Shown: positions 23,889-35,949 of the stretch, one piece after another | Position numbering within the stretch: position 1 is the first letter of the stretch | How the letters are laid out: every line of letters begins with the position of its first letter | Assembly (NCBI GenBank): GCA_951406725.2 | Contig: OX597830.1 | Coordinates: 10,230,001 to 10,294,000, forward strand | DNA from: Octopus vulgaris | Taxonomy: Eukaryota | Reading direction: 5' to 3' | DNA: 64,000 bases | Translations under genes and position numbers: made by a program | The notes under the pieces: model-generated | The model's database searches: none | Seen by the model: the letters and a program-made list of their open reading frames with translations, nothing else | Told to the model about the DNA's origin: nothing

Positions 23889-23889
<1 letters not shown>

Positions 23890-25759
23890 TATGCCAAAGA
23901 AACTACAGGTATGCCAAAGAAACAGCTACAGTGCACTGTAGAATAGGGCCACTCCTCGAAAAGGATGGCACACTTACAGGAAAACCAATGAGGGTAAGTG
24001 AAATACTGAATGAGCAATTCAAGAGTGTTTTCACTCCACCCCTTGGGCATCTCCAAATCACCAATCCAACTGACTTTTTTACCACTGCAGATATAAAATC
24101 AGAGGCGGCGACGATAGATTACATCGATATAAATGAAGACGATGTAACCAAGGCTATAGATGAAATGAAAACAGACTCAGCTACTGGCCCCGATGGATTC
24201 CCGGCAATCCTCCTAAAAGCATGTAAGAGAGTCCTAGCAAGACCACTGCAGTTCCTCTTTCAGAGCTTCCTTGCAGCTGGCAAACTTCCAGGAAAACTGA
24301 AGGAAGGTAAAATATGCCCCATTCATAAAGGAGGTAGCAGAGCGGAAGCCAAGAACTATAGACCTATCTCTCTGACCTCACACATCAGCAAGGTCATGGA
24401 ACGAATAGTCAGAAGGAAGCTGATCACCTTCCTTGAAGAAAATGACTTGCTTCCCGACACCCAACATGGTTTCCGACCAGGGAGAAGCTGTTTAACTCAG
24501 CTCCTACAACACTATGACTGGGTGCTGAAACGGCTGCTCAACCACTCAAATGTGGAAGTGATATATCTCGACTTTGCAAAGGCCTTTGATAAAGTCGATC
24601 ATGGAATGATATGTCACAAACTGCGTGATCTCAACATAGTTGGAAAACTGGGAGAATGGCTTCATGACTTTCTGAAGGATAGAAGTCAGGTGGTAGTAGC
24701 CAATGGGGCCACCTCCATTAACACACAAATAGTGAGCGGTGTTCCGCAGGGCACTGTTCTGGGACCACTACTGTTCATAATGGCCCTCTCAGACATGCCC
24801 TCAGCCACGCAGAGAGCCACGATCACAAGTTATGCAGATGATACAAAAGTTTCACAGGCAATACAGAACCCTGAGGACACTAAACACCTGCAATGTGAGC
24901 TGGACGAAATATACAAGTGGGCTGAAAAGAATAGCATGCAGTTCAATGCTGGAAAGTTTCAAGCTTTATACTATCAGCATGCAAAACTGAATGCAATACC
25001 CAATGAATACACTGGACCCGGAGGGATTGCAATCCCAGAGGCACAATCAGTGCGTGACCTGGGTATTCACATGAGTGATGACGCGACCTTTCATGTACAT
25101 GTTGCTAAACTGACAATGAAATGTAGACGGCTGGCTGGATGGATTCTTAGAACCTTTAGAACAAGAGAACAAGAAACCATGATGGTCCTCTGGAAGACAC
25201 TTGTCCTAAGCCACTTTGACTATTGCTCTCAGCTATGGTCACCATCCAGTGTCAAGTTGATCACAGAACTTGAGGCGATCCAACGAAGCTACACAAAGAA
25301 GATAGCCTCTATGCAGAATGTAAGCTACTGGGAAAGACTCAAGAGATTAAAATTATATTCCCTGGAGCGTAGGCGGGAAAGATATGCCATAATATACATC
25401 TGGAAGATCCTGGAGGGAAGTGTCCTGAACTTTGGCATCGAGAGTTACGCAAATGCCAGAACTGGGCGCCACTGCGTGGTGCCTAGGACTCCAAACCTGC
25501 CATCAAGATGTAGGACAAGATACTGTGATAGCCTGGGCTTCCGAGGCCCACAGCTCTTTAATATCCTCCCGAAGAGCCTGAGAGACCTGCATGGGGTGGA
25601 TACAGATGTCTTTAAAATGAAGCTGGATCTCTTCCTGTCGGGTGTCCCAGATGAACCAACTTCACGGCAGGAGGGGCAGATGAGGGCAGCATGCATATCT
25701 CTCATGCACCAAATATAGTTGCTAGATATATCCATGAATAACCAAGTAGCAACACCAAT
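23889..25759 (+). mobile_element. 5'-truncated non-LTR retrotransposon (CR1-group LINE), young insertion
   Basis: Sharp boundaries against (TA)n; uninterrupted ORF2 RT; very short 3' UTR. Confidence 0.92.
23931..25718 (+). CDS. LINE ORF2 reverse transcriptase, 5'-truncated (endonuclease missing; the GTG start is not the natural start)
   Basis: [81 protein letters not shown]; 595 codons with no stop. Confidence 0.93.
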
Positions 25760-27266: not shown

Positions 27267-27391
27267 CAAAAATTTAGATTCGAACGAATATGGTACTTAC
27301 TTTAGATGCACCAGAATTTTGTATCGTGTTATCCATAAAAATTTTCGGGGTGATTATAATCAAAATAAGCAACAAGAATGACTCCGGTAAT

Positions 27392-27477
27392 TTGGTACAA
27401 TTGTTTCGCACTACATCATTTTATTAAAAGTTGTAAGTATTACAACAGATTTAAGATGCTGAGGGCTCATCAGCCAA
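27392..27477 (-). ncRNA. Type-I hammerhead ribozyme, intact core, extended stem II
   Basis: UUGG-CUGAUGA-GC...GUUGUAA/UAC/UUACAAC...GC-GAAAC-AAUU-GUA-CCAA. Confidence 0.8.
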
Positions 27478-28339
27478 TTATAGAGGTTTTCCATTAATAT
27501 AAAAGCTTTCAAATCAAGTAGCAACATTATAGAGAAGGTAAATATACAGACAAAGATGTAGATTTAAATTTTAAGAACATATGAGGTAGGGAAGTCCAAC
27601 CACTGACTGACCAAGTTATGTCTGTATCTAACTGCTATAAGGTTAGAAGTAATAAAGATTTTTTAGTTGTAGGAATGGGGTAAAGGAGGTTTCAGAATAC
27701 CATAAAAGGAATTCAAGTTGAAGACAGTAGTGGCCACTAACAAAATGCCAAATTACTACTATTTGGTGAGAGAAACTAGGTTAATGTCAAATGGTCATTA
27801 ATCCCCTTTACAGAGAGTAGGGAAAAAGCCTATCACTTATTATTATGAGTAGGCATAGTATTTTATAACTGGGGGAAAGCCTTATTTATTTTAAAACTAG
27901 ATTAGATTTAGAAAAATTGCCAATTTCAAGTTTACAAAGAAGTTTTTTTAGTCATCTATGAAAGTTAAATTGAAAGCTAGTATAGTATGTTTCTTATTGG
28001 GTGGGTGGATGGATGGATTGATGGGTGGGTGGGATTTGGGTATGTGGATGGATGGGTGGGTGGGTGGGTTGGTGGATGGATGGATGGATGGATAAAAAGG
28101 TAAATAGATATGTCAAAGAGATAGCGAGAGACTTTAGACGGATGGATGGATGGATGGAAAGATAGGTCGAAAGATAGAGAGATGGATAGATAAGAAGTAT
28201 TTAGAATATAACCATTAAATAAGCAAATAAATAATAGCAGAAAGAAGAAAACAACAATAAGTAGAAAGGAACGCCAAAACTTAATCAAAGAATGGAAAAG
28301 TAATTCGCGAAAATAAACGATAACAAGAATGAGAAGTGG

Positions 28340-28525
28340 AAGAAAGAGGAGGAGAAAAAGGTGAAGAAGAAGGTGAAGAAGGTGAAGAAGAAGAAGGTGA
28401 AGAAGGTTGTGAAGAAGAAGAAGGTGAAGAAGAAGAACAAGAAGGTGAAGAAGAAGAAGGTGAAGAAGAACAAGAAGGTGAAGAAGGAGAAGAAGAAGAA
28501 GAAGAAGGACAACAGCAGCAGCAAC
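28340..28525. repeat. (GAA)n/GGT compound trinucleotide repeat
   Basis: Direct reading. Confidence 0.9.
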
Positions 28526-29295
28526 AAAACTAATGTAGCATAGAGCACGAATATGGAAAACCTAAGAGGAGAAACATTTAAAGAATAAGAATCACCAATT
28601 CTGAAGACAATTGAGGAAAGAATTGTGGAAAGAACCAGCAGCAGCGAGGGGGGGGAGCGATGATTCTGGGTCAACGTCTCTTTCTGTTAGGAAGGAGAAA
28701 AAAGAAGGGAGAAAGAAACGTGAGTAGGTGGATGACTGGGAAGAAGAAGAAGAAGAAGAAAAAGGTCTGTTAGCATTTAATTAGATAGGGTGCTGTTTGG
28801 GTAGATACATATGGTGGGGTGGCTGGTGGTGGTGGTGATGGTGGTGTTTGTTGTTATGTGTTGCTTGTTGTTGCTGTAGCGGTGGTATGGTGGTAGCGCT
28901 GGTTTTTGTTGTGGTGGCTGTGGTGGGGCCGATGGTAGGGGCGATGATGGCGGTGGTCGTTGTAATGTTAGTTGTGGTAGTGGGCGGTGATGGCTGGAAG
29001 TGACGGTGGAGAGGGACAGTGGAAGTGATGGTGGTGGTATGGTGCTGGTGGGGATGGTAGTGGTGGTGATGGTGGTGATGATTGTGGTAGAGGTTGTGGT
29101 CTCATAGTGATGGTAGTGGCGACGAAGTTGATGATGTTAGTGTTGGTGTTGTTGTTGGTGATGGTTGCTGTTAATGTGGTGATAGGGGTCCTCTTCGTTG
29201 TCGTGATGGCGGTGGTAGTCTTGGAGGTGGTGGTTGTGATTCTGGTGGTTGTGGTAGTGGTGGTAGTGGTGGTGGTGGTGATGGTATGGTATGGT

Positions 29296-29530
29296 TAAGG
29301 CGGTGAGCTGGCAAAACCGTTAGCAGGCCGGGCGAAATGCTTAGCGGTATTTCGTCTGCCGTTACGTTCTGAGTTCAAATTCCGCCGAGGTCGACTTTGC
29401 CTTTCATCCTTTCGGGGTCGATGAATTAAGTACCAGTTATGTACTGGAGTCGATGTAATCGACTTAATACCTATGTCTGTCCTTGTTTGTCCCCTCTGTG
29501 TTTAGCCCCTTGCGGGTAATAAAGAAATAC
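29296..29530 (+). mobile_element. SINE family C monomer with an apparent 14-bp TSD
   Basis: GTATGGTATGGTTA at 29284-29297 and 29531-29544. Confidence 0.9.
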
Positions 29531-30482
29531 GTATGGTATGGTTATGGTAATAACTTAAACTATGTAGAATTATGTATAAACGTTTCTGAAACTCTTTAGG
29601 TGAAGAATATTTCTCTCTTCAATTGAAATAAATGGAATTATAAACGTTCTCCTGTCTTGGGGCCTCTCGCACAGTAAATAACCCTCTTTTTTTTGTTTTG
29701 TTATTTTTATGTTGTTCTGCTCATTATGTCTGTCTGTGTGTTTATAACTGTCATTTTGTATATGTTTGTATGTATAGGTATTTATAAACACACACATATA
29801 TAAATATACATACATAGACACACACATACAAATATGTATATATACATATACGTATACAAATATATATATGAGTGTATATATATTTATATATATATATACA
29901 TATATAGACACATACATGTGCACACATATATGTATATACATGTATACATGGATACATATGTGTACAAAGAGGAAGGGAACACACACATATGCATATATAT
30001 ATATATATACATATATAGATATTGATATATATATATATATATTATATTTATTATTTTGAAACAAAAATATTTTTGACAATGACACACGCTCACACACACA
30101 CACGTATATATATATGCATATGCAAATACCAATATGTATGTATATATAAATGCGTGTGTTTATGTTGTTCCTATTTAGCCCTAGGTCAGACCTGATAGAG
30201 CAATCTTATAATTAAAAGAGTTCCATTATTTATGTAGACTTAACGTATTTATGACTACGCGTTAGAAGTGTGTCATTTCTATTCCCATCTATGACGGAAG
30301 AGCATCATTTGAGGAATATTTGGCTGTTATGTTTAGCAAAATAAATCATGTTGAGGCTCCCTCATTGGCTCGTATTTATTTAACACATTGAGGTGTCAAA
30401 CACTTTTCAGATTGCTCAAATTAGAATAAACTTTAAGACAGACATCTGTTAAGACATTATTAACTCTCCCATTCTCTCTGTC

Positions 30483-30533
<51 letters not shown>

Positions 30534-31139
30534 CTGTCTTTCTGTCTACATTTATCTTTTTCTCTCTCTATCCTTAACTAACTGTATGTGGGTGTGGGTG
30601 TGTGTGTGTGTGCACATATATAAATACATGCATATATAAATTAATACTCACACATATACATGTATGTATGTACATATCAAAAGAATGTGTTATAACGCTA
30701 TTCTGCAAATACAAAAACTGCCATACCAACAATCCAAGATACCCCCATCATCAGCTGCCCCACAGATATCATTATGGTTTCGACACCTTGGCACTACCAT
30801 TCAATCCGGTGGTGTCAACAGTACTAAAAGAAGTGTTGTATATATGTTACTTCCTTACGTTATCTCTACAGATTTTTCTAAAGTAATTATAACCAGTACT
30901 GGAAGTTATGACGTTTCGTATACGAATATATTTACGTAAAGGTAATACGAATATATTTGCGGTCAAAGGTCCATTAATACCTGATTATGCCTTTTCGTTT
31001 TTTTTTTCTCTTTTACTACGTTGACTTGTTTTGGTATTAATGTTGAATTGAACAAACAATCTTAAGAACAAGATTATTACAGCCACTTTAAGTAATGTTT
31101 AAGTAATGTGAGATCGATATTTTTGTAGGTGACAAATAT

Positions 31140-31705
31140 AGGTGACAAGAAGTAACACAGTTTCTAGCTCTTTAGACCGGAAAGGCCTAAACATCCAATG
31201 GAAATCCTGCTGGTCATGTCGACTGTACTTTCACTCCGGACGCCATGCTTGCGTTTATGTTGACTGTAACATCAAAGTGTCTGATATTATTTGATGCCAT
31301 GAGAGACTTTCCTAAAGAAAGAGAATATAACGATTATAGTATATCCTTTTATTCGTTTGTCTTCAAAGCGAATGAAAGATTTTTAGCATATTGTCAGAGA
31401 CTTTCAGCTTAATCTTTTTTTGTCTAGCAGCATATTTTTTTCCCCTGGTACACTGAATCACTTCTCATAAAACAGACTGGAGTTCTGAACAGTCACCTAG
31501 TTCGCTGATGCGTTTCTTGATTATTTTGCAATTATTTTCTATGATAGTTTATTAGGTTTGATGACGTTTTTATATCTTATAACGAAGAGAAGTAGGCCCT
31601 AAACGGTGCCTTGGAAGACGCCACGAAAGGATTCTGTGCGTGATAAGTGGTCCCAATCAGTCACAATACATTGGGCTCCTTTTACCAGGAACCTTTTCTG
31701 TAAAA
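31140..31705 (-). pseudogene. Old CR1-group LINE RT fragment
   Basis: RFLVKGAQCIV..GVFQGTV*GLLLF and MFRPFRSKELETVLLL align to [24 protein letters not shown] and [16 protein letters not shown] of the 23931 ORF. Confidence 0.7.
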
Positions 31706-31730
31706 CTCCAGTATGTATGTATATATATAT

Positions 31731-31761
<31 letters not shown>

Positions 31762-31880
31762 TGTATGTGTATGTATATGTGTATTAATATATATATATAT
31801 AAAATATTAAGTTATATCTTGAGTGACAACAACGCTCAAGATATACAACGGACTGAAAATAGAAGTGCTCTAATGAGCTG

Positions 31881-33050
31881 TATACACTTTTTTTTATCCG
31901 AGGGGAGGCAATGCGAACAACAACCACAGGAACATCACAAGATCCACAGATGGACCAAACACATACAAATCTTCATATACTCATTTTTATCTATAAAGCT
32001 CGACATTTAAAAATTTAGTAATATATAAATATATCATATAAAAATATAATTTTGCATATAACACCTTGAATTAACGCTTAAAACATTTAGTATAAATTTG
32101 TTACAATAAGAGAAATAAATATAATAATAATAAATAAAAATAAAGCATACAATGGCATATTAAAAGACGAATTAAAATTCTAGCGAAATGTATAGAGAAG
32201 ATAATAATAATACAAGTTTACAAAAATATAAGTTTACAAAGATACACAGAAGTCCATCTTCGGGCCGTTTCGGGGACGCGCCAATTAATATTAGACATAT
32301 CATATACTTAAAATTGGCACTCCCTTCAAGGACTTGAACCCGAATATGTGGCTTTGCATGTATGTGAGAATTTATAAGATTGAAATAAAATAAAATAGAA
32401 CAAAATAAGTACAGAATTGAAATGGTCCAGATGGCGCTGTGTGCATACAATTTACTATGGCTGATGGATCGAATTATATGCGTATAATATAGCATTCAGG
32501 ATCGGAGAAAAAATTCTGGGAGTACGTAATGTCTCGGTTCTGAATATGGCCGGTATGTGATTGTGTATTTGTTCACGTTTGTTATGTGTTGTATGTATAG
32601 GACATCCTGATGAGGAGAGTGTCAATTTTAAGTATATGATATGTCTAATATTAATTGGCGCGTCTCCGAAACGGCCCGTAGATGAACTTCTGTGTATCTT
32701 TGTAAACTTATATTTTTGTAAACTTGTATTATTATTATCTTCTCTATACATTTCGCTAGAATTTTAATTCGTCTTTTAATATGCTTTTGTATGCTTTATT
32801 TTTATTTATTATTATTATATTTATTTCTCTTATTGTAACAAATTTATACTAAATGTTTTAAGCGTTAATTCAAGGTGTTATACGCATAATTTATATTTTT
32901 ATATGATATATTTATATATTACTAAATTTTTAAATGTTGGGCTTTATAGATATAAATGAGTATATGAAGATTTGTATGTGGTTGGTCTACCTGTGGATTT
33001 TGTGATGTTCCTGTGGTTCGCATTGCCTTCTCTCGGATAAAAAGTATATA
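31881..33050. mobile_element. Large fold-back pLTR-like element, ~440-bp inverted arms
   Basis: 31881-32324 is the reverse complement of 32614-33050 at high identity; the ORF track shows the same peptide on opposite strands. Confidence 0.88.
32603..32684 (+). ncRNA. Type-I hammerhead ribozyme, intact core, extended stem II
   Basis: CAUC-CUGAUGA-GGAGA..UCAAUU...AAUUGG..UCUCC-GAA-ACG-GCC-CGU-A-GAUG; predicted cleavage after GUA at 32680. Confidence 0.85.
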
Positions 33051-33419
33051 CATACATATACATACATACATACGTATGTATGTATGTATGTATGTATGTA
33101 TGTATGTATGTATGTATGTATGTATGTATGTATGTATGTATGTATGTATGTATGTATGTATGTATGTATGTATGTATGTATGTATGTATGTATCCATCCA
33201 CCCACCCACCCACCCACTCACTCACTCACTCACTCACTCACTCACTCACTCACTCACTCACTCACTCACTCACTCACAAGGCTTTGGATTGCCCGAGGCT
33301 ATAGTATAAGAAGACACTTTCCCAAGCTGCTACACAGTGGGACTGAACTCGGATCCATGTGGCTGGGAAGCAAGCTTCTTATCTCACAACCACTCCTGCG
33401 CCTATACAGGTATTCAAAA

Positions 33420-33737
33420 CATATTCCGATGCGCATGCGCGCTCGTTAATGATAGTCTTTCGAGTCTGAGAAAGGCAGTTCTGCAATATCTTGCTGAACT
33501 ACCCCCACGGTAGATTTGTTGATATTGATTAAAAATCATTCGGCTATAGATTACCTCACTTCTGCCATCAAATCGATAGTTCCATTGGGGGAACCCCGGG
33601 TGCCACGCATCCGACCTCGAATTGATCGTAGGGCAACGTAAAATGAAGTGCGTTACTCGAGGACGCAATACGCAGTCTGGTCTGAAAAATCGAACCGACG
33701 ATTGCCCGATACTTGCCACTAGGCCGTGGGACTCATG
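33420..33737 (-). mobile_element. Old tRNA-derived SINE with a Meta-like body
   Basis: CGGCCTAGTGG and GGTTCGATT boxes; GTCCTCGAGTAACGCACTTCATTTTACGTTGC resembles the family D body. Confidence 0.5.
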
Positions 33738-33789
33738 TATGTGTATATATATACACATATACATACACTCATATACATACACTCATATA

Positions 33790-33823
<34 letters not shown>

Positions 33824-33998
33824 ATGGATAATAAAACGAATAAATTGGCGCACACGTGGTTGTACAGTAATAAGTAACATGGTTCCGGGTTAAGTATTCC
33901 ACTGCACAATACCTTGGGCAAGTTTTTCCTACTATAGCCTCGAGCCGACCGAAGCCTTGTGAGTGGATTTGGTAGACAGAAACTGAAAGAAGCCCGTC

Positions 33999-34046
<48 letters not shown>

Positions 34047-34143
34047 AGTGTGAAAAATTTAATATTAATTTGATTAATATCAATTTAAAACCAGTGGTCT
34101 AACATATTAAAATCTGAAGATTCAAAAAAATTATATTACATAC

Positions 34144-34336
34144 ATATAAGAGGGATGACCACTATGTGGACATCCATAATGCTGGTAGTAGATCCACTAA
34201 GAAAAGAATGTTCTCAAGTAAATTTAGCAAACGCTTTGCTAAATTTTCTTGACAACATTCTTTTCTTAGTGGTAAGACCATAGCGGATCTACTGCCAGCA
34301 TTATGGATGTCCACGTAGTGGTCATCCTTCTTATAT
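34144..34336. repeat. ~190-bp fold-back hairpin next to TA/TG microsatellite
   Basis: Arms pair around the loop CGC at ~34231, with an extra ~15-nt segment in the right arm. Confidence 0.88.
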
Positions 34337-34344
34337 ATATATAT

Positions 34345-34385
<41 letters not shown>

Positions 34386-34587
34386 CTATGTATGTATGTT
34401 TTTGTATCTACGTTTGATCCCCTGTAGCGGCAAAAGAACCCGATAGAATAAGTATTAGGTTTGAAAAAAGAAAAAATTCCTGAACTCGATTGATTTGTTC
34501 GTCTGAAGCCTTTCGAGGCAGTGCTCCTCCCCGGCTGCAGCCAAATGACTGAAACAAACAAAGGAATAAAAGAATAAAATGATATAT

Positions 34588-34863
34588 GCCCGTGAAATTA
34601 AATGCAAGTGGCTGAGTACTCCACAGACACACGTATCCTTAACGTAATTCTCAGGGAGATTCAGAGTAGGACAGGACATGACAAGGTTGGCCTTTTGTAT
34701 TACAGGTTGAAATCATTTTTGCCAGGTCAATAGACCGGTGTCCAGTTTCCCAGGACATACAGCTGGCAACGGGAAATAAAGTGCCTTGCTCAAGGGTACA
34801 GCGCGCCGCTAGGAACTGAACTTACGATCGTAGGCCGAATATATCAACTACTAGGCCACGCGT
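34588..34863 (-). mobile_element. SINE family D, degraded
   Basis: Collinear with 16390-16655. Confidence 0.75.
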
Positions 34864-34865
34864 TG

Positions 34866-35260
34866 TCACGCAGTGTGGTAACGAGCTTGCGTCCGTCGCA
34901 AACACATGGTTCCGGTTTCAGTCCCACTGCGTGGCACCTTGCGCAAGTACCTTCTACTATATAGCCTCGGTCTGACGAAAGCCTTGTGAATGGATTTAGT
35001 AAACGGAAACTGAAAGAAGCCTGTTGTGTGTGTGTTTATCTTTGTGTTCGCGTTTTTTTCCCAGCTACCATCGCTTGACAAACGATATTGCTGTATTTAT
35101 GCCTCCGTAACCCGTAACTTAGTGGTTCGGCCAAAGTGACCGATAGAATAAGTACTAGACTTACGAAGAATAAATCGTGGGGTCGATTTCATCGACTAAA
35201 AACCTTTTAAGGCGGTGCTCCAGCATGGCCGCAGTCAGATGACTGAAACTAGTAAAATTA
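34866..35260 (+). mobile_element. SINE family B, near full length
   Basis: Collinear with 58769-59168. Confidence 0.88.
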
Positions 35261-35343
35261 TAAAACAATGTGTGTGTGTGTATGTATGTAGATGTATATA
35301 TATATATATATAAAGAAAAAAAGCAACAAGAATGGATTAGTTG

Positions 35344-35432
35344 TTCAGTACAATTGTTTCATACGAAGAACAGCTTTATTAAAAGCTGCAAATATTGCAG
35401 CAAATACAAGTGTCCCGTATTCATCAGCCAAA
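35344..35432 (-). ncRNA. Type-I hammerhead ribozyme, intact core, extended stem II (relative of 27392-27477)
   Basis: UUUGG-CUGAUGA-AUACG...GCUGCAA/UAU/UUGCAGC...CGUAU-GAAAC-AAUU-GUA-CUGAA. Confidence 0.8.
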
Positions 35433-35949
35433 ACACAAATGAGTTTTCTAAACATCCTGGGCGGGGGGGTGAGGCTACACTCATGAAGTATCGAAGACAG
35501 TTCTATGAAAAGCAAAGTTAGATTGTAAGCAGACTTCAAATGTTCTCTAATGATGCACAGTTTTATAAAAGGTTTTTAAAAAAGTTTGTTAGCTTCACAG
35601 AAAAGGTAAATGTTTTACGAAAATATATATATATATATATATATACGCACAGACACACACACGCACGCACATACACATGCACACACTGTCCCACACCCGT
35701 CCCATACATATTTACTTAATGTTTTGACTCTGTGCCGTTTGTCAGCAACACAAAGTCAGTCTGTCTGTTTACACGTTTAAGTGAATATTATAAATATTTA
35801 TTAGTCCCGCTGTAGAGACTCGTTGACAGCTTTAACTCTGTGTGGCGGAACCCTATCGCATCCAATATCCTATATCTGTCATATTATCACTTCCTTTATA
35901 TTTCGGGGGTTTTTAATCTCTTTTCCATCTTCCTTACCAAGTTATCAAT

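Follow-up and report, generated by a model that had tools for sequence, protein, structure and literature searches.

A 64,000-nucleotide (nt) stretch of Octopus vulgaris DNA (contig OX597830.1 of assembly GCA_951406725.2; hereafter the window) carries two type I hammerhead ribozyme motifs with intact cores, A (27392..27477) and B (35344..35432), both on the minus strand. Judging from sequence comparisons across the genome, the two motifs are almost certainly the hammerheads of pseudo-long terminal repeats (pLTRs) belonging to two subfamilies of one Hydra-clade lineage of Penelope-like retrotransposons (Penelope-like elements, PLEs), an identity that is absent from the original prediction made for this DNA.

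Both cores follow the type I order CUGANGA ... GAAA ... NUH: CUGAUGA starts at 27473 in A and 35427 in B, GAAAC-AAUU-GUA at 27407 and 35360, and A17, after which cleavage is predicted, lies at 27396 and 35349. Stem I (4-6 base pairs, bp), basal stem II (5 bp) and stem III (2 bp plus a palindrome) are able to close around this core, and stem II is 59 nt long in A and 60 nt in B. The apical arms, GUUGUAA/UUACAAC in A and GCUGCAA/UUGCAGC in B, differ at two positions by a U-A versus a C-G pair. Strand, core motifs and these apical double changes had been predicted and were found as described; the shared downstream element CAUUCUUGUUGCUU was found as well, but it starts at 27380 after A and 35334 after B, past the predicted cut and just outside the intervals 27392-27477 and 35344-35432 to which it had been ascribed. 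The features of the two copies are listed below, the hammerheads themselves having been recognized from sequence.

27267..27998, minus strand: 5'-truncated 3' end of a subfamily A element (3' untranslated region (UTR), pLTR and ~95-nt tail), running into (TA)n; 90-91% identity over 646-763 nt to the DNA after the GIY-YIG open reading frame (ORF) in locus L061
27392..27477, minus strand: type I hammerhead A, predicted cut after A17 at 27396, with a private A>C change in basal stem II
27408..27466, minus strand: stem II of A, 59 nt (basal 5 bp, middle helix, internal loop, apical 7-bp hairpin at 27430-27446)
27420..27425, minus strand: AAUAAA on the 3' side of the stem II internal loop of A, 24 nt before the cut; candidate poly(A) signal
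27367..27380, minus strand: U/G-rich conserved element CAUUCUUGUUGCUU past the cut site of A, adjoining the main 3' insertion end; internal/terminal substitution ratio 0.25
35309..35611, minus strand: 5'-truncated 3' end of a subfamily B element (pLTR, without tail) between TA repeats; 94% identity over 305-306 nt to the 3' ends of the ORF-bearing loci L062 and L239
35344..35432, minus strand: type I hammerhead B, predicted cut after A17 at 35349
35361..35420, minus strand: stem II of B, 60 nt, apical hairpin at 35385-35401
35375..35380, minus strand: AAUAAA in the stem II internal loop of B, 26 nt before the cut
35321..35334, minus strand: U/G-rich conserved element past the cut site of B

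In copy A the TA repeat begins 129 nt past the cut site. A and B share about 74% identity across the motif, and identity to other genomic copies is 95-98% for A and mostly 97-99% for B; rather than two diverged copies of one repeat, as had been proposed, they are members of two separate young subfamilies. The GC/GC base of stem II that had been read in A is a decayed 5-bp helix, its GCCCU occurring in 1 of the 37 matches of the A search (copy A itself), among which GCACU/AGUGC is present in 21 and GUACU/AGUGC in 9. As lone copies, A and B are most likely inert passengers.

Neither motif matched an Rfam family at the gathering threshold, and the 101 Rfam matches at E<=10 over 27300-35500 include no hammerhead family. 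Two further features of the copies were considered and rejected: a fixed 5' end at 35611, as in a short non-autonomous element, where the truncation is private to copy B and other copies reach further upstream; and an ATG with a splice donor in the tail of copy A, where GTAAGT is private to that copy and the short frame closes early.

A coding element behind the motifs

Searching the 2.8-Gb genome (227 contigs) with the motif pattern of the A/B clade returned 3,796 + 3,690 = 7,486 matches, compared with 1 for the reversed control, so the motifs are not chance occurrences. First-look searches gave 1,867 candidates for A and 1,077 for B, of which 40 were scored for each, and inverted copies or inverted pairs are frequent among the genomic copies of both. 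At 80 of 110 loci picked by their endonuclease, a hammerhead of the A/B clade lies downstream on the same strand, 385-1497 nt away. Hammerhead distance tracks endonuclease distance (Mantel rho 0.89, p 0.001), the tree is ladder-like, and the elements of A and B are 77% identical in their reverse transcriptase (RT) and 64% identical in their endonuclease.

Full-length copies are organized as pLTR-ORF-pLTR over 4.6-4.7 kb, with one hammerhead before and one after an RT plus GIY-YIG ORF of ~960 amino acids (aa); direct hammerhead pairs 4,623-4,713 nt apart, enclosing an open ORF, were present in 5 of the 18 long loci fetched (three related families). The units also carry an Asn-rich linker and a long 3' UTR, and the ATG lies about 210 nt past the cut site. 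The 957-aa protein (P0001) contains RWK, DKT, YRDD, CxCX5C, CxxC, CxH and VIY...YIG, and lacks DKG and CX2-5CxxC. The Hydra clade is defined by RWK, DKT, a CxCX5C linker, the lack of CX2-5CxxC, and CxxC plus CxH near the C terminus (PMC8557442); the protein agrees with this motif definition and, by eye, resembles the alignment printed there motif by motif. An assignment to Neptune/Nematis was dropped after the same motif test.

In 134 of 161 distinct 3' flanks, the 190 nt scanned contain a TA run, with peaks at +34-38 and +135-160. Insertion 3' ends are of two kinds, lying about 36 nt or about 135-160 nt past the cut site and running into (TA)n, which is the tail pattern described for PLEs (PMC8557442, PMC11167929). 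The organization is that of an endonuclease-bearing PLE: a single RT plus GIY-YIG ORF, pLTR direct repeats with a hammerhead, inverted truncated copies and an optional tail. The copies do not have the make-up of non-LTR retrozymes, with their short non-coding units in head-to-tail tandem: they are truncated ends of a coding element, and other copies run on upstream into the 3' UTR and ORF. Five young loci (L236, L237, L238, L240 and L247, on contigs C6, C4, C19, C20 and C15) have open frames of 976-984 codons and, in the paired cases, pLTRs up to 99% alike, which suggests that their subfamily was recently active.

Two other repeats of the window were recorded alongside these copies. A 609-aa open frame encoding a non-LTR (LINE-type) reverse transcriptase lies between long TA tracts (23889-25718, plus strand), and a SINE-like repeat at 34903-35270, presumably similar to octopus SINEs, adjoins copy B and is common to many fetched loci.

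Selection on the ribozyme structure

A family alignment with covariation statistics, the check that the original prediction had called for, was made from 36 hand-picked representatives, comprising cluster medoids, both window copies and four extras (alignment A1). Three truncated or deleted medoids were left out, 2 hammerheads from one other family were taken out of the seed alignment, and of 186 profile matches the 11 that were not near full length were dropped. On A1, a 27-pair structure has 85.8% of its cells paired, a figure that leans in its favour because the structure was drawn from the A1 sequences themselves, compared with 27-50% in slid controls; 17 pairs show a double change. Under a tree-based null, 4 of 27 pairs reached E<0.05 with testing confined to the structure (stem I contributing two, basal stem II and the middle helix one each; 3/27 on the 133-row set), and none did so against all column pairs. 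At the level of single tests, 11 of 27 pairs had p<0.05 on A1, with about 1.4 expected. None of the top-ranked pairs outside the structure, where the stem I/loop II tertiary contact of canonical hammerheads would show, covaried at E<0.5, at a low power given by an effective n of about 20.

The two apical double changes, which had been put forward as the sign of selection, are real but weak on their own, with tree-aware p values of 0.22 and 0.18. One of these pairs passes from U-A through U-G to C-G without a broken cell in A1, and the other is a C-A mismatch in 20 of 133 sequences, whole subfamilies included. The apical stem as a whole is 92% paired in A1, and stem II of B folds with a z of -3.4.

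An independent tree, built from the linked endonuclease DNA, was used to compare changes on internal branches with private ones. Taking all helices together, a paired state was the outcome of internal changes more often than of private ones (p 0.005); the same held for stem I (p 0.018) and stem III (p 0.026), the apical stem was borderline (p=0.07), and basal stem II showed no such contrast (p 0.53). Internal/terminal substitution ratios were 0.08 in the core, 0.25 in the U/G element, 0.40 in stem III and 0.57 in the apical stem; the remaining parts gave about 1 or more, the apical loop varying freely at 1.0. These ratios imply that the ribozyme has been under selection in the transposing lineage. 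The proposal that structure was selected during amplification is thus supported at the level of the family (core 0.08, stem III 0.40, apical stem 0.57; all-helix p=0.005), even though the two apical changes first cited for it contribute little. On the substitution pattern, the core, the stem III palindrome and the stems appear to have been kept along the active lineage; the apical hairpin probably was too, and for the middle helix maintenance is uncertain.

Predicted cutting, insertion ends and the long stem II arm

Stem III consists of 2 bp and a self-complementary tetraloop whose palindrome is kept through changes from AAUU to GAUC; its pair 15.3-16.3 is A-U in 87 of 133 sequences, G-C in 32, G-U in 11 and broken in 3. 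Folding predictions give stem III a probability of <=0.023 in the monomers of 6 copies, and an 8-mer self-duplex of -5.8 to -10 kcal/mol in 5 of these 6. In the dimer model (PMC4209133), two pLTR hammerheads of one transcript pair and excise the unit between them, which is ligated and copied more than once round; a weak monomer stem III combined with a favourable 8-mer self-duplex, as predicted here, fits this model. The predicted minimum free energy structure of both window copies also differs from the active hammerhead fold. Unconstrained RNAalifold recovered stem I and the apical hairpin but missed both the basal and the middle part of stem II, whose 3' strand it paired with stem III instead. 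This conserved alternative pairing joins A1 columns 80-83 with 89-92, that is, the stem II 3' strand plus G12/A13 with the 3' half of stem III, and, if it forms, could hold the monomer inactive.

We chart the following model for full-length elements. The hammerheads would likely cut a read-through transcript into units of ~4.65 kb, which would then likely be ligated into circles and reverse transcribed. Two hammerheads paired by way of the 8-nt palindrome would cut best, and the RT would prime just past the U/G-rich element and copy more than one unit. The long stem II would have arisen as an insertion into loop II specific to this lineage, its folding maintained to let helix II go on closing the core. 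To the identity of the element and this cut-and-circle model taken jointly, with cleavage itself predicted, we assign a probability of about 60%, and place it first among the readings considered.

Several results weigh against it. Pfam support for the protein is weak, with GIY-YIG at E 6e-4 and RVT_1 at E 0.002, both under gathering, and a Pfam search of the full ORF gave 0 matches. Internal and terminal changes do not differ in the middle helix (p=1, in a region where the alignment register is uncertain). Among 30 loci examined for 5' ends, of which 4 gave no ORF-start match, none of the 26 ORF-start copies has a 5' end at the cut site (the nearest are at +23, +37 and -51), bearing in mind that in diverged copies the alignment end may reflect divergence. 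The DNA therefore bears no footprint of cutting and would be explained just as well by an uncut transcript. In the axolotl, monomers whose stem III has 2 bp and a tetraloop do cleave to some extent (PMC7229834), so strict dimer dependence is not certain, and for the anole Poseidon element catalytic mutants are described as having no effect on insertion in vitro (PMC11167929). What the 5' ends do exclude is a cut linear unit as the template, since 16 of the 26 copies run upstream through the 5' cut site and none stops there; a circle and an uncut read-through RNA would both fit the insertion ends.

The same ends leave room for a hammerhead that cuts but is dispensable for transposition, being a passenger or serving another role (at the RNA level, or in making a 5' end for translation) while copies arise from uncut read-through RNA. 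Besides the 0/26 count, 3' ends lie at +35-38 or later, unprocessed RNA was the main substrate in the experiments of PMC11167929, and the option that hammerheads parasitize PLEs is raised in PMC8557442. The strong purifying selection on the core in the transposing lineage (0.08) argues that the hammerhead helps the element at some step, and we regard its dispensability as improbable, if the most serious competitor to the cut-and-circle model.

The prediction that stem II is long for a hammerhead was borne out, its 59 and 60 nt comparing with 10-24 nt in the Hydra hammerheads tabulated in PMC8557442. Long arms recur in the octopus genome in several unrelated families with stems II of 31-105 nt, at least seven of which were found beyond those of the window (L050:591, L009:2019, L241:6737, L161:2893, L025:2080, L252:8053 and L244:7313); the L241 and L244 hammerheads lie downstream of related PLE ORFs of 842 and 955 aa. 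The window itself holds a third type I hammerhead of an unrelated family (32603-32684, plus strand), with a well-paired stem II of 54-57 nt; it forms a fold-back with an inverted partial copy at about 32150-32330, and its family has 407 first-look genome candidates, many clustered on contig C30.

Within the A/B arm, the best-kept unpaired feature is AAUAAA/AUUAAA, which the original prediction did not mention. The hexamer is present in the stem II loop of 73 of 80 endonuclease-linked copies and, by eye, in 95 of the first 100 matches listed; in all 6 copies that were folded it precedes the cut site by 23-26 nt. The best hexamer pair covers 73 of 80 copies here, compared with 33-55 in other unpaired or middle windows, 71 in the apical stem and 66 in the U/G element.

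AAUAAA/AUUAAA at this spacing matches the canonical metazoan poly(A) signal. The long arm might accordingly have been kept because it presents such a signal, AAUAAA and the U/G element forming a polyadenylation site laid over the ribozyme site, with a choice between polyadenylated mRNA and a read-through or ribozyme-processed template. The frequency, position and relative conservation of the hexamer speak for this. The idea is nevertheless post hoc and the stem II loop is A/U-rich; the hexamer columns are not slow (ratio 1.57), and reconstruction of the motif on the tree is ambiguous. Other long-stem families in the same loci mostly lack the hexamer (0/4, 0/3, 0/2, 0/2, 0/2 and 1/3, with one at 3/3), and a U/G-rich 3' flank is also seen in published short-stem Hydra hammerheads (PMC8557442). 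Contigs from 4 presumed RNA runs cover the hammerhead motif, and among the 21 loose ends listed from these four contig sets there was no poly(A) tail, contigs being weak evidence for ends. PMC6765202, searched for an overlap of hammerheads with polyadenylation signals, mentions only Clec2. We therefore consider selection for a poly(A) signal unlikely, and slightly more doubtful the full version, in which the stem II extension would display a working AAUAAA and a single RNA of ~120 nt would be both a polyadenylation site and a dimer-activated ribozyme, switching between mRNA and a circular or read-through template. Were the hexamer functional, 3' end formation would be tied to ribozyme folding, and solo copies, present in their thousands, might provide host transcripts with poly(A) sites; otherwise, the finding is a structural variant of the described association of hammerheads with PLEs.

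The original prediction offered a different role for the arm, as a dedicated module for protein binding or tertiary contact, for example with the element's own RT. The well-paired apical stem, which evolves more slowly than neutral (92% paired; 0.57; p=0.07), and the recurrence of 31-105-nt stems in unrelated families would suit such a module, but the arms of other families have different sequences and shapes, variation in the apical loop is unconstrained, top-ranked pairs outside the structure show no covariation at E<0.5, and the inferred priming sites lie past the cut site, outside stem II; on balance we think a dedicated module improbable, and a shade more so than a poly(A) role. Finally, that the motifs are chance matches or neutral relics, with covariation reflecting the shared ancestry of two repeats, is highly implausible: few pairs pass the tree-aware test (4/27, none counting all column pairs), but 7,486 matches against 1, a core near-invariant on internal branches, 11/27 pairs at p<0.05 and 86% pairing against 27-50% in slid controls refute it for the core and stem I.

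For the question of what hammerheads do in PLEs, this octopus lineage provides a usable test set, with young intact copies (open ORFs of 940-980 aa, pLTRs about 99% alike) and a ladder of subfamilies bearing natural compensatory variants. Since long-armed hammerheads escape Rfam, ribozyme counts in such genomes are too low, by at least 7,486 for the A/B clade alone.

Comparison with known systems

A literature search for hammerheads with a long or extended stem II found no paper on an arm of ~60 nt; Lunse et al. 2016, which reportedly deals with dimer-cleaving PLE hammerheads, and subscription papers may describe such variants. Among the papers listed by a search joining hammerhead ribozymes and octopus, only PMC8557442 is relevant.

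The closest systems are the Hydra-clade PLEs (Craig et al. 2021, PMC8557442), in whose pLTRs hammerheads are already published. They share with the octopus element RWK, DKT and CxCX5C, a GIY-YIG at the C terminus, insertion into (TA)n, a type I hammerhead close to the 3' end and, in published short-stem members, the U/G-rich 3' flank; basal stems II of TGC/GCA and GTGC/GCAC with T on both flanks are common to the octopus family and to File S2 of that study. In 26 Hydra rows of File S2, stem II with its loop spans 10-24 nt (22 nt in Hydra-1_Obim), whereas it spans about 56-60 nt here, making the A/B arm two to six times as long as that of published relatives. The units are also larger, at 4.6-4.7 kb versus generally <3 kb, a size typical of the clade but not required, and the tail measures about 100-120 nt versus the 30-40 bp given for PLEs (PMC8557442). 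An enlarged stem II, flagged as non-canonical, is listed in File S2 for the spike-moss elements PLE-X1_sMoe (53 nt) and PLE-X1_sTam, which sets a precedent for long arms among PLEs; these elements are Chlamys-related, endonuclease-less and rDNA-targeting, and unrelated in sequence.

A published type I family resembles A and B in having a short stem I and a short, palindromic helix III, in the dimer cleavage and circular template proposed for it, and in its numerous solo copies and covarying families; it has a helix II of 7-8 bp, unlike the multi-helix arm here, which goes undetected by Rfam. Poseidon PAc of Anolis (PMC11167929) likewise has a pLTR hammerhead and two defined 3' ends (tail) matching two RT start sites, but it belongs to another clade, and its ORF starts inside its stem II rather than about 210 nt past the cut. 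Animal non-LTR retrozymes (PMC7229834; bioRxiv 10.64898/2026.07.22.740005) also combine type I hammerheads with circular RNA and have a proposed origin in PLE pLTRs; they are non-coding tandem repeats of 150-450 nt, whereas the octopus hammerheads mark the ends of an autonomous coding element.

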